DNA of 64,000 nucleotides from Candidatus Woesearchaeota archaeon (GCA_016185615.1 JACPNE010000007.1:1760-65759); one strand, 5' to 3'; shown: positions 6-2,896, counted from the first letter of the stretch. The notes: generated from the sequence alone by a model not told the origin. Made by a program: numbers and translations.

Positions 6-33
6 ATTTCGCTTAACTGTGCTTATCTGAATT
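6..33. other. dif-like recombination site A
   Basis: ATTTCGCTTAA-CTGTGC-TTATCTGAATT; TAA-N6-TTA core with inverted arms like known Xer sites. Confidence 0.7.
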
Positions 34-38
34 CTCAG

Positions 39-55
39 TAGAATAGCTTATAAAT
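39..55 (+). promoter_or_regulatory. 17-bp element TAGAATAGCTTATAAAT (BRE/TATA-like), copy 1
   Basis: Exact copy at 910-926; contains TTATAAA about 30 nt before the ATG at 84. Confidence 0.6.
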
Positions 56-425
56 GGTCCATTTAGCCCAATTTAGAGATAAAATGAGTGAAGAATATGA
101 TAATAATTGTGATAGAATAGAGGAATTTTTGGGAACATTACCAGGGGGTTTTCAAAAAGAAATAGACTATTTAAAAAAGTTTTATGGTTTAAAAAGCCGC
201 ACAGAAGTACTTCTTGTTTCTCTTAATCTTGCGCATAAACTTGCTACTTATACTGATTCTAGTATTAAGAATTTAGAAGAGGTAACAACAGTGAATGATA
301 TTGGTGATGGAGCCATCCTAATTGGAGATAGGGATGATGAAGCCATAAAATTATTAAGAAAACTGATAGCACCGCCAAAATACGGACAAAGATTTATGAA
401 TTGGCTAGAAAAGAAATTAAGATGA
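54..425 (+). CDS. Hypothetical protein, possible ribbon-helix-helix-like segment; true start probably ATG at 84
   Basis: ORF track; EIDYLKKFYGLKSRTEVLLVSLNL resembles RHH helices (weak); TATA position favours 84. Confidence 0.6.
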   Translation: MVHLAQFRDKMSEEYDNNCDRIEEFLGTLPGGFQKEIDYLKKFYGLKSRTEVLLVSLNLAHKLATYTDSSIKNLEEVTTVNDIGDGAILIGDRDDEAIKLLRKLIAPPKYGQRFMNWLEKKLR

Positions 426-452
426 TTACACTTAACGATGATTAACCGAATA
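425..452. other. dif-like recombination site B
   Basis: ATTACACTTAA-CGATGA-TTAACCGAATA; overlaps the stop codon of the upstream ORF. Confidence 0.65.
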
Positions 453-482
453 TTTTAAATAATACCATAAAATTTAGAGATT

Positions 483-917
483 ATGAAAAACCAGTCACAG
501 TTACTAGATTTAACATTAACAGAAGAAGAGTTATTCAGAAAAAGATTAAAAGTTAAAATCCAAGATCCTTTAGGTTTTAAGACAACATTAGGACATTCTT
601 ATTCTTTAGTATTAGAATCATTAGCACAAGAGGGTTTAGATGATACACCAAACCCAGAAGAATTTATTGAATATGTTGCTTATTACGTTAAAAATAGATA
701 TGGATATTCTGAATCAAGAGAAGTAGAAAGAAGGAGATTCTTAATGCCTACATATTATCCACATATTGCAAGAGCTATTTGGAGGTATGTGGAAGGGAAA
801 GGATTGTCTGAAAAAAGAAGTAGTCAAATAATGAGAGAAGTCCTTGGACGAGAACTAACTGATTTTTCACCAAAGATAAAGTTTATGTCTACTAGTTTTA
901 CTGGCAGTATAGAATAG
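483..917 (+). CDS. Hypothetical protein (144 aa)
   Basis: ORF track; no recognisable motif. Confidence 0.7.
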   Translation: MKNQSQLLDLTLTEEELFRKRLKVKIQDPLGFKTTLGHSYSLVLESLAQEGLDDTPNPEEFIEYVAYYVKNRYGYSESREVERRRFLMPTYYPHIARAIWRYVEGKGLSEKRSSQIMREVLGRELTDFSPKIKFMSTSFTGSIE

Positions 918-926
918 CTTATAAAT
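910..926 (+). promoter_or_regulatory. 17-bp element TAGAATAGCTTATAAAT, copy 2
   Basis: Identical to 39-55; TATA about 21 nt before the ATG at 947 (leaderless-type spacing). Confidence 0.6.
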
Positions 927-946
927 ACTAAAATAAGGATAAAATT

Positions 947-1216
947 ATGAATCAAGATAAGTTTTATAGAATTGCAGGAATAGGAACAACATTGGGTGTA
1001 ATTGCTACTGGACTCTATGCTTCAATCTTTAGTTTCGATGAGAATACACAAAGTGTTGGTCAGTATTTAGTTAACTTTGGAGAAAATTTGAAATTAGTAC
1101 CGCAAAATGCACTGTTTGGTTATTTACTTGGTGGAGCTGGAGCATTATTCTTAGATAAATTGAAAAAGGTAAACTCTAAAAGAAATCATGTTCTAGAAGA
1201 TAGATTAGATGTTTAA
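947..1216 (+). CDS. Small hypothetical membrane protein
   Basis: Two hydrophobic Gly-rich segments. Confidence 0.7.
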   Translation: MNQDKFYRIAGIGTTLGVIATGLYASIFSFDENTQSVGQYLVNFGENLKLVPQNALFGYLLGGAGALFLDKLKKVNSKRNHVLEDRLDV

Positions 1217-1217
1217 G

Positions 1218-1245
1218 AGTGCGTATAACCATTCTTATACGAACT
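1218..1245. other. dif-like recombination site C (most symmetric)
   Basis: AGTGCGTATAA-CCATTC-TTATACGAACT; arms 10/11 inverted-identical; left arm is 9/11 identical to E. coli dif GGTGCGCATAA. Confidence 0.8.
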
Positions 1246-1259
1246 TTTTAAGAAAATCT

Positions 1260-1508
1260 TTATTTTATTGGTCCTAATGCTACTGAAGCAACACATAAAC
1301 CATATTTAATCTGGGTTCCAAGAAGCCTAAAATAAGATTTAGCGTATTGTCCAATAGATTCACTTTCTTGAACATCTTTAACACATTGTGCAATTATAGA
1401 TTCAAATTTCCTTTCTAATTCTTGAGCTAAATATTCTTGTCTAGTTCTAACTGTTTTACGTGTGTTTTTTACATCTTCTCTAACAGCTGAAATAAGGTCT
1501 TTTACCAT
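1260..1508 (-). CDS. Hypothetical protein (82 aa)
   Basis: ORF track; converges on site C. Confidence 0.6.
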   Translation of the reverse strand: MVKDLISAVREDVKNTRKTVRTRQEYLAQELERKFESIIAQCVKDVQESESIGQYAKSYFRLLGTQIKYGLCVASVALGPIK

Positions 1509-1545
1509 TCTTTTGTTTAAAATCCTTAATTTATAATCCTTTCTA

Positions 1546-1556
1546 TTAAGCGAAAT
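1546..1556. other. Orphan dif half-site
   Basis: TTAAGCGAAAT is the exact reverse complement of the left arm of site A; no partner arm at 6-bp spacing. Confidence 0.4.
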
Positions 1557-1598
1557 GTTTATATTAGTTCATTTGATATTTATCTTGGGGAACCTAAA

Positions 1599-1908
1599 AT
1601 GAGGGTGAGTAGAGATTTAGATCTCATTCTTCCCTAAATTAGAGGCTCTATTAAAAGAATTAGGGTATAGAAGGGATTTTGTTTTTAATAAACGAGATTT
1701 GAAACACGATGAAAATTGCTACTGTGAGCTATGTCAATTGAAAATAAGACTAAATCTATATAGTTTAATTAGCAATATAGGATACTATTATATTAACATG
1801 ATAAAATTGCCTAATTATCCAACTGAAATTAAGGAATTTTTTTATTATCTATTGAACAATAAACTAAAGAAAAGGGATAAATCAAAGAAATTAGAAACTA
1901 AAGTGTAA
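1599..1908 (+). pseudogene. Hypothetical gene interrupted by a +1 frameshift at CCC-TAA (1632-1637); joined product about 102 aa with a CxCxxC motif
   Basis: ATG1599 MRVSRDLDLILP-stop; the +1 frame is open from 1633 (PKLEALLKELGYRRD...) into track ORF 1699-1908. Confidence 0.5.
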
Positions 1909-1952
1909 TATATCACTACTATTCAATAATAATAAATAGAAAGGTTTAAAAA

Positions 1953-2870
1953 TTGAAAAAGTATACAACATATATGAAAAGGAAGTTTGAATATGCAGTT
2001 AGAACTATAGATGATGAAATTGTGAGGGATGGTCTTTCTGCCATTTCTAAATTAGATATATCTCCTTTAAGTAGGGATAACTATGCTGTTAGGGGTGGTG
2101 TTGCTGTTCAAAGTTATCTTCCAAGTTCACGTAGAAGGCCAACAACTGATATTGATACTGTTGTAGGCGACTCATTAAGAAGAAAATCTGATTTTATTAC
2201 ATTTGTTAAGCCAATAGTTGAGTATCTAAAAGACAATAAATTTTCTATAAAAACATTTAGTAAAGAAAGTAGGTCTTGGTTAATTCATGCCACTATAAAT
2301 GGAGAACTATCTAACGAAGAGATTCTCTTAAGCTTTACAAGGGATAGTAAACTAAGTTATGATAACAAAAGAAGCAGAAGGGAGAGGGAATTAGAAAATG
2401 CTAGATTAAAGACAGTTGAGTCAAGAAAAGATGTATATAGGGTTCTTTCTACTGAGGACATAATCGTTCAGAAATTCCAACGTTTATCTGAAATTTTGAA
2501 TGATTATCCAGATATTGTTAATTCTTTATCTAAATATTATGGAGAGATGTCTGATGAACTAATCAGGGAAACAATGAATAGATTAAGAGATACAAGGGAA
2601 AAATTGTTGAAGGATCCAGATAATAAAAAGTTAGATTCTACAGGAAGAGCAATATGTGATGCATATGACATTAGAATATTATTTGAAATTTCTGGAATTA
2701 ATGAACAATATTTATTAGATACATTTCCATTATGGCCTTTTGACCACATTTCAAGAGAGGTTAAAAGAGGAATTATACCAATTATTCATGGCGTAGATGG
2801 ATTAGAAAAAGTTCTTATCAGCAATAATAATCAAGAATCTTTATTTCCAAGAGCATCTAATGGAAATTAG
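1953..2870 (+). CDS. AbiEii/type IV toxin-like nucleotidyltransferase
   Basis: Motifs YAVRGGVAV, RRRPTTDIDTV, EDIIVQK, DAYDI. Confidence 0.7.
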   Translation: MKKYTTYMKRKFEYAVRTIDDEIVRDGLSAISKLDISPLSRDNYAVRGGVAVQSYLPSSRRRPTTDIDTVVGDSLRRKSDFITFVKPIVEYLKDNKFSIKTFSKESRSWLIHATINGELSNEEILLSFTRDSKLSYDNKRSRRERELENARLKTVESRKDVYRVLSTEDIIVQKFQRLSEILNDYPDIVNSLSKYYGEMSDELIRETMNRLRDTREKLLKDPDNKKLDSTGRAICDAYDIRILFEISGINEQYLLDTFPLWPFDHISREVKRGIIPIIHGVDGLEKVLISNNNQESLFPRASNGN

Positions 2871-2896
2871 TTCGTATAACAATTATTAAACGAAAT
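2869..2896. other. dif-like recombination site D
   Basis: AGTTCGTATAA-CAATTA-TTAAACGAAAT; overlaps the stop of the nucleotidyltransferase; left arm equals the reverse complement of site C right arm. Confidence 0.8.

Follow-up and report, generated by a model that had tools for sequence, protein, structure and literature searches.

Small accessory-gene modules bounded by Xer recombination sites are familiar from Acinetobacter, where modules without a recombinase of their own, often of the toxin-antitoxin type, lie between 28-bp sites of 11-6-11 layout whose spacers differ from site to site; these pdif sites are found on Rep_3/OrfX plasmids, and chromosomal examples have also been reported. A comparable arrangement occupies the start of a 64,000-nucleotide stretch of Candidatus Woesearchaeota archaeon DNA (GCA_016185615.1, JACPNE010000007.1:1760-65759, or G000:C6:1760-65759 in the coordinates used here; hereafter "the window"), in which four dif-like sites, s1 to s4, precede xerA, the sole tyrosine recombinase gene of the assembly. 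The Acinetobacter arms, e.g., ATTTCGTATAA-CGTGTA-... in a table of PMC13141974, have almost the same sequence as the archaeal ones. The archaeal array differs in its placement, on a chromosomal contig immediately ahead of the recombinase gene rather than on a plasmid, in its DPANN host, and in being known from sequence alone. Because a single XerA serves here, the two arms of each site resemble each other and are nearly palindromic, and the obligatory alternation between C and D modules seen in Acinetobacter is not applicable. Of the systems compared, the Acinetobacter dif modules would appear to be the best analogue, and as an archaeal, XerA-based dif-module array the locus is a new version of the dif-module arrays already known.

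Bacterial integrative mobile elements exploiting Xer (IMEX), among them CTXphi, VGJphi, TLCphi and the gonococcal island, are integrase-less elements that reside at dif and, according to the passages available from PMC5357621, form dif-like arrays with unlike centres, some having one degenerate arm. The archaeal locus is like them in its split-palindrome outer arms and one-armed junctions. It is unlike them in that its modules measure 0.4-3 kb, with no phage or plasmid genes matched, in that the same sites surround unrelated content, and in that no folded single-strand site was found. Heterospecific lox and FRT sites, employed in recombinase-mediated cassette exchange, have the same arms and different spacers; unlike sites do not cross-react, and the cassette they flank can be swapped. 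Compared with that engineered exchange, the arrangement described here would be a natural one. In integrons, the integrase gene is divergent from its array, and the attC sites are folded and 55-140 nt long. Integrons, including the archaeal ones described in the consulted part of PMC9668308, share with this locus a recombinase gene beside an array of open reading frame (ORF) modules, but here the recombinase is not IntI, there is no attC, and the sites are 28-bp duplexes.

The canonical archaeal XerA/dif systems of Pyrococcus, Sulfolobus and Thermoplasma pair an 11-6-11 inverted repeat with XerA and cleavage at the spacer borders, an organization that would hold here as well (PMC2958812 and PMC3646895, in the passages seen). 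In Thermococcales there is one dif per genome, not adjoining xerA (PMC2958812, same passages), whereas here there are four to five, all beside xerA. The literature searched, comprising titles, abstracts and some passages, describes archaeal XerA/dif as a single dimer-resolution site and yielded no description of XerA-bounded modules or of IMEX in archaea; a review covering the tyrosine recombinases of archaea contains, in the portions consulted, none of the terms "IMEX", "hijack" and "DPANN". To date only bacteria are known to have Xer-dependent gene modules and IMEX. The explanation favoured below, at somewhat better than an even chance, is that a chromosomal array of XerA sites bounds small accessory-gene modules, is kept by its unlike spacers, and exchanges modules via like spacers. 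If this is true, tiny symbiotic groundwater archaea with genomes of ~0.7 Mb and a single recombinase would possess their own built-in gene-exchange "hot spot", whose rules of exchange (the spacer being the address) could be deduced from sequence data and checked using a single purified protein. The locus would then also offer an independent, homodimeric test case for how the dif modules of Acinetobacter move.

Four dif-like sites upstream of xerA

The assembly that holds the window has 668,339 bp in 8 contigs (30% GC, 86% complete), and within the first 2.9 kb of the window lie four 28-bp dif-like sites, each consisting of 11-bp inverted arms on either side of a 6-bp spacer. A preliminary description had given their spacers as CTGTGC, CGATGA, CCATTC and CAATTA, all different and all with C as the first base, and re-parsing found all of this, and the coordinates, to be correct. 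All four are on the plus strand. Site s1 (6..33) has the arms ATTTCGCTTAA and TTATCTGAATT, the spacer CTGTGC at 17-22, and a matrix score of 20.0. The arms of s2 (425..452), ATTACACTTAA and TTAACCGAATA, are weak; its spacer CGATGA is at 436-441 and its score of 11.6 ranks fourth in the genome. The best score of the genome, 29.1, belongs to s3 (1218..1245), with the arms AGTGCGTATAA and TTATACGAACT and the spacer CCATTC (1229-1234). The xerA-proximal site s4 (2869..2896; arms AGTTCGTATAA and TTAAACGAAAT, spacer CAATTA at 2880-2885) scores 25.5; it starts 436 bp ahead of the xerA start, and the gap from its end to the gene is 409 bp.

A pattern and a matrix made from s1-s4 themselves were circular and were replaced by a matrix of 120 half-sites from other genera only, with this genome and its four closest kin left out. 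By this matrix s1-s4 are the top four sequences of the assembly and all others score below 8; in three shuffled genomes the best scores were 12.0, 4.8 and 17.1. A look-alike at window positions 61804-61825, with 2 mismatches, was rejected as a site, since no sequence beyond the array reaches a score of 8. Across the order, the consensus of the half-site reads A/G-G-T-T-C-G-C/T-A-T-A-A.

A fifth site lies ~1.45 kb upstream of the window start (G000:C6:288-315), with the spacer GACACA, a good right arm (TTAGGCGAAAC) and a decayed left arm. Its counterparts are at -6075 in the related genome G012 and at -4197 in G002, and the reverse-complemented spacer (TGTGTC) of the metagenome contig L058, at -2803, points to an inverted segment. 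In addition, a lone right arm, TTAAGCGAAAT, without a left arm, occupies 1546..1556 on the plus strand. The sequence next to it (1529-1546) is an inverted copy of a promoter-like 17-mer, described with the module genes below, and is therefore not the decayed left arm of TTAAGCGAAAT; the idea that at lone arms the spacer goes with the left sequence was likewise rejected, because this left part is an element common to L058 and the break is thus not inside a site. The four full sites, the fifth site and the lone arm all fall inside 4.7 kb, in contrast to the single site per chromosome, in the termination region, of the archaeal XerA/dif system.

The gene that these sites precede, xerA (3305..4132, plus strand), accounts for the one PF00589 match in the genome. 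Its product passes the archaeal XerA equivalog NF040815 (recomb_XerA_Arch) of NCBIfam at 260.6 bits against a cut-off of 220, and reaches 211.7 bits with the integron-integrase model TIGR02249, below the cut-off of 265, the match to IntI4 being split into two stretches. Among PDB entries it is best matched by 4a8e, which was deposited as "probable tyrosine recombinase XerC-like" and is presumably the XerA of P. abyssi (E 9e-50), and by 5hxy XerA (E 3.6e-48). The contig, a chromosomal one, also carries housekeeping genes (NAD kinase, tRNAs).

Persistence of the sites while intervening DNA is replaced

The array can be followed in G012, whose XerA is 88% identical to that of the present genome (G000) and in which all four sites recur without a change of order, their spacers being CTGTGC, CGATGA, CCATTC and CAAGTA. 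Between the two genomes 23/24 spacer bases and 78/88 arm bases of the sites match, and even the weak s2 agrees at 26/28 positions. At s1 the spacer is identical and 26 bp of the right flank are also kept. The flanks of the whole array are ~80% identical, and between them only the sites align, as islands of 27-54 bp at 81-96% identity. The modules between them measure 419, 793 and 1651 bp in G000 and 375, 482 and 3064 bp in G012, the orientation of the genes differs too, and no DNA or protein similarity was found between the module contents of the two genomes. An additional module of G012 is flanked by s4 and a lone right arm, the counterpart of which in G000 is the s4 right arm together with its flank. 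Although G012 is classified in a different genus, it is nearer to G000 in its XerA (88%) and flanks (~80% in nucleotides) than are G001 and G002 (78-79% in amino acids, 73% in nucleotides); regional transfer, binning or taxonomy noise are possible reasons.

A closer relative is L058, with a XerA 97% identical, in which a block of 95% identity to G000 begins at the left arm of s4. Upstream of s4 its content differs from that of G000 except for a 629-bp stretch at 85.5% identity. The middle bases of the s4 spacer vary among these three loci, which have CAATTA (G000), CATGTA (L058) and CAAGTA (G012). In G001 and G002, members of the same genus as G000, a single full site near xerA has the spacer CGATGA and different arms. 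Two other genera present the same picture. In the genus g13 the GAGGGA and GCACCA sites are kept, and the gap between them is 811 bp in G014 and 2934 bp, with an extra site, in G016; one site-adjacent segment of this genus is inverted between G015 and G016. In the genus g22 the GATATG and TGTATA sites form islands of 27-28 bp. In three lineages, then, the 28-bp sites persist, spacers included, while the DNA between them is replaced. For pairs of sites matched independently by blastn or by order, 71/72 spacer bases are conserved as compared with 237/264 arm bases, although the pairs are not independent of one another.

The wider occurrence of such sites was surveyed in the order Woesearchaeales. 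XerA orthologues occur in 56/61 relatives and in 145/196 genomes of the order that are at least 80% complete, and a sample of 103 xerA loci (1.10 Mb; two of them are metagenome contigs, and three are the second locus of a genome already included) was searched with a refined matrix, which found 76 sites scoring at least 16 and none in shuffled copies. At least one such site is present at 55/103 loci and two or more at 16/103. Since 27 loci carry a single site within 1 kb upstream of the gene, usually at a distance of 40-900 bp, a xerA-adjacent dif is the common state in the order, and the ancestral state would be one dif tens to hundreds of bp upstream of xerA. In the family f19 the single site is at -86 or -87 in 11 loci (G165-G169, G174, G176, G177, G182, G185 and G186), with spacers TATACA, CATATA, CATACA and similar, a tight xerA/dif unit that may couple expression of xerA to occupancy of the site. 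Many contigs of metagenome-assembled genomes end within a few hundred bp of xerA (upstream, 85 bp in G137, 89 bp in G174, 2 bp in G129 and 9 bp in G018); strain-variable modules that break assemblies would explain such ends. An upstream excess of contig ends near the gene, 9 as compared with 5 within 3 kb in the first 42 loci, was not convincing.

Spacer identity and the proposed routes of module exchange

In the scheme that would account for these patterns, module insertions spread copies of an ancestral xerA-adjacent dif apart. XerA would cut at both borders of the 6-bp spacer, as reported for the 6-nt spacer in the passages available from PMC3646895, and the C at the start of each spacer would therefore be the base just 3' of the top-strand cut. 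Complete exchange would require the spacers of the partner sites to pair. Neighbouring sites with unlike spacers would then be unable to delete the DNA between them, and the array would therefore be stable, while each site could still recombine with a like-spacer site on the sister chromosome, on another copy of the genome, or on an incoming replicon. Two such like-spacer events, at two flanking "addresses", would swap one module. XerA is thus presumed to act on all four sites, and modules to move by like-spacer exchange. For the pdif sites of Acinetobacter, the consulted passages of PMC13141974 state that recombination was seen only between spacers that are identical or have one mismatch. They also describe one module taking the place of another while the flanking spacers stay the same, and attribute this to the formation and resolution of cointegrates. 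The same spacers on either side of different content, as in G000 and G012, fit the pattern that like-spacer exchange would predict.

The preliminary description had proposed that unlike spacers stop the array from collapsing, and this part of its interpretation is supported. In the 16 arrays of the sample, neighbouring spacers differ at a minimum of two of six positions, in either orientation, in all 22 of 22 pairs, and the neighbours among s1-s4 have 2-3 differences; this agrees with the order and spacer bases retained between G000 and G012, and with the like-spacer rule of Acinetobacter. The other part, that the shared first base marks one-sided exchange as the route of insertion, is not supported by the wider set of sites. 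Read in the orientation of xerA, the 76 spacers have T (37), G (20), C (18) or A (1) at position 1, where the C of s1-s4 is thus not general, and A (46), C (19), G (11) or T (0) at position 6. The spacer-end rule of the order is accordingly symmetric, position 1 being almost never A (1/76) and position 6 never T (0/76). A further rule, that at least one strand begins with a pyrimidine, was discarded, as 4/76 spacers have it on neither strand and ~5 are expected from the marginal frequencies.

The 27 single sites have a spacer consensus of T/C-A-T-A-C-A, with T (15), C (8) or G (4) at position 1; spacers of this CATACA/TGTATG type presumably resemble the crossover regions of E. coli dif and loxP. 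The spacers of the 37 array sites are far more varied, and those outside the present clade begin with G (12), T (11), C (2) or A (1). A first base common to the whole array is seen in just 4/16 arrays, three of which have two sites only, and the fifth site of the present array, GACACA, begins with G. Calculated from the first-base frequencies of the 64 sites outside the clade (C 10, G 18, T 35, A 1), the chance of four independent C's is p ~6e-4 and that of four of any one base ~0.1, but the independence of the four sites fails because the same array exists in G012. Since so few arrays share their first base and C is ordinary in single dif sites (8/27), the C at position 1 would be the form taken in this clade by a base that across the order may be T, C or G, and not a property of the array.

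Several observations weigh against exchange through like spacers. No joint between two sites was found among the assembled contigs of Logan, and the joints that are listed have short sides of 21 nt (one of them, 26>2993, was set aside as untrustworthy for this reason). Because both arms are kept on both sides, a break in content cannot be placed inside a site. At s1 the block conserved with G012 runs 26 bp beyond the right arm, through the promoter-like element, and at the lone arm TTAAGCGAAAT the similarity to L058 begins 16-17 bp to the left of the arm. The block shared with L058 fades gradually inside an AbiEii-like gene, and homologous recombination therefore also shapes the region. No donor replicon with the same pair of sites was found; 53 viral contigs with palindromic sites (GC 0.31-0.59) included no clear kin. 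The score of s2 lies within the range of the shuffled genomes and is not above chance by itself, and what qualifies s2 as a site is where it sits within the array, together with its agreement at 26/28 positions with its G012 counterpart. The higher conservation of spacers than of arms over all groups of sites (145/150 as compared with 448/550 bases) is circular, as the groups are partly defined by their spacers. Finally, 48/103 loci show no site scoring at least 16.

Other observations on breakpoints and viral sites are of less weight. In runs X5 and X7 the match of the Logan contigs ends at L085 1766, where s1 has its left edge, which is no more than a weak hint, and the uncovered parts in runs X5-X7 are gaps of low depth and not evidence. 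One viral contig, IMGVR_UViG_3300045988_078672 (L185/L186), contains two identical 28-bp sites in inverted orientation, at 80-107 and 735-762, 655 bp apart, and looks like it holds an invertible segment.

A broader form of the explanation, offered tentatively, is that throughout the DPANN archaea of this order a housekeeping XerA and a "ladder" of dif sites would constitute a natural cassette-exchange platform, each spacer serving as the address of a slot. Two like-spacer crossovers would swap modules as the scaffold stays in place, and new slots would come from one-sided insertions that leave one-armed junctions beside xerA.

Of the explanations that dispense with exchange through like spacers, the one that survives best, although we consider it rather unlikely, is serial, IMEX-like insertion by one-sided exchange of a single strand pair. 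Circles with a poor attachment site would enter the resident dif using minimal spacer homology beside one cut, and replication would fix the junction, such that each spacer differs and the insert has no way out. The outermost arms could be the halves of a single split palindrome: ATTTCGCTTAA, on the left of s1, is exactly the reverse complement of the lone arm TTAAGCGAAAT, although the sample is small and the arms are near the consensus anyway. Exact complementarity also links the right-hand arm of s3 with the left-hand arm of s4. The arm TTAAGCGAAAT, one base different from the right arm of s4, recurs beside xerA in G012 (-448), G001 (-561) and G002 (-50), where the xerA-proximal junctions have a good right arm and no left arm; near-identical lone arms are present in g13 at -58, -51 and -576. 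Such junctions look like hybrids of a one-armed attachment site with dif. At the xerA-proximal junction the similarity of G012 to G000 begins at the right arm, and the two middle bases of the s4 spacer change between near-identical genomes. Bacterial IMEX do use one-sided routes of this sort (PMC5357621, passages seen). Unrelated inserts should, however, bring unrelated arms and spacers, whereas G000 and G012 keep the same ones around unrelated content. The junctions place the crossover at the right spacer border and not at the shared C, and the first base is common to too few arrays, as noted above. Nor were replication or virion genes matched in the modules, or an inverted site pair or a folded attC- or CTX-like substrate found in the repeat search of the array, and the XerA of P. 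abyssi is without strand preference in the available passages of PMC5357621. Serial one-sided insertion would predict a canonical spacer at the leftmost site; this is the case in G081, G200 and perhaps the present clade but not in g13, G042 or G208.

Still less probable is that the extra sites are relics, left over from old duplications or insertions and no longer recombining, with one site serving as dif and the content turning over by ordinary deletion or by homologous or illegitimate recombination. The decayed arms of s2 and of the fifth site, the existence of lone arms, the lack of a recombination joint in the Logan contigs, and the mosaic, fading similarity in the AbiEii-like gene, which points to homologous recombination, are all in keeping with relics. 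Against them stand the 28-bp islands, at 90-96% identity with their spacers, in otherwise unalignable DNA of three lineages, which are hard to account for without selection on each site or its repeated use, as well as the conservation of even the weak s2 and the sharp breaks in content at s4. An integron-like platform, with XerA as the integrase and promoterless ORFs that enter at the gene-nearest site to be driven by a platform promoter, is improbable: the recombinase gene does adjoin the array, every module closes with an ORF that runs up to the following site, a promoter-like 17-mer is retained beside s1 in both G000 and G012 although they have different ORFs after it, and 5/6 module ORFs point in the same direction, but the protein falls short of the integron-integrase cut-off (211.7 against 265) and exceeds the one for XerA, the sites are 28-bp duplex dif and not folded attC, xerA is co-directional with the array and not divergent from it, and archaeal integrons use IntI and attC as described in the part of PMC9668308 consulted.

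Module genes and the xerA flank

The modules that exchange through like spacers would move are each bounded on both sides by Xer sites, and the terminal ORF of each stops at the next site, at 425, 1216 and 2870. Module A consists of one ORF of 123 aa (54..425, plus strand) without an assigned family, whose stop codon abuts s2 and which has no BLAST relative in the array of G012. Module B begins with B1, an ORF of 144 aa (483..917, plus strand), also without a family, followed by ORF X (947..1216, plus strand; 89 aa), a small membrane-like protein that ends just ahead of s3. In G002 and G001, it is at the CGATGA site that weak relatives of ORF X (30% over 92 aa, E 8e-6) terminate. In module C the first ORF, C1 (1260..1508; 82 aa), is the one on the minus strand and has no family above cut-off; it is followed in C2 by a Cys-rich ORF of 69 aa (1699..1908, plus strand), 93% identical in L058, and an AbiEii-like nucleotidyltransferase of 305 aa (1953..2870, plus strand), whose stop codon overlaps the left arm of s4. 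Searches of Pfam, PHROGs, NCBIfam and PADLOC gave no match above cut-off for ORF A, B1, ORF X, the 82-aa and 69-aa ORFs, or ORF Y (described below), and the searches of family libraries matched no phage or plasmid family, replication or virion gene, or integrase in the modules.

The 305-aa ORF matches AbiEii of PADLOC at E 6.4e-4; its first match in the Atlas, at 0.96 with 177 shared features, belongs to a cluster that is 12% AbiEii, and more AbiEii clusters follow at 0.93-0.94. The Cys-rich ORF of 69 aa could be the partner of this toxin-type gene. Homologues of the 305-aa protein occur in other contexts in L058 (37%) and, split, in G001 (45%). Members of the AbiEii-like family (37-45% in amino acids) and of the ORF X family thus lie beside other sites in L058, G001 and G002, too diverged to count as the same module. 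Accessory cargo of this type would be as in the bacterial dif modules.

The promoter-like 17-mer, TAGAATAGCTTATAAAT (39..55, plus strand), lies just to the right of s1 and ahead of ORF A. A second exact copy (910-926) precedes ORF X, and an inverted copy, 83% identical, is at 1529-1546; all three closely precede a module ORF. Judged by where it lies and by its TATA-like sequence, the element is probably a shared BRE/TATA-type promoter.

Between s4 and xerA lies ORF Y (2923..3327, plus strand; 134 aa), which overlaps the start of xerA by 23 nt. Among the 103 loci it is confined to G000, L058 and G012, and it may represent a lineage-specific partner of XerA or a module that has become fixed. Further downstream, after L085 7551 (~5792 in the window), 23 extra bases with no counterpart in the assembly are present in the Logan contigs of each of four runs, the likely source run among them.

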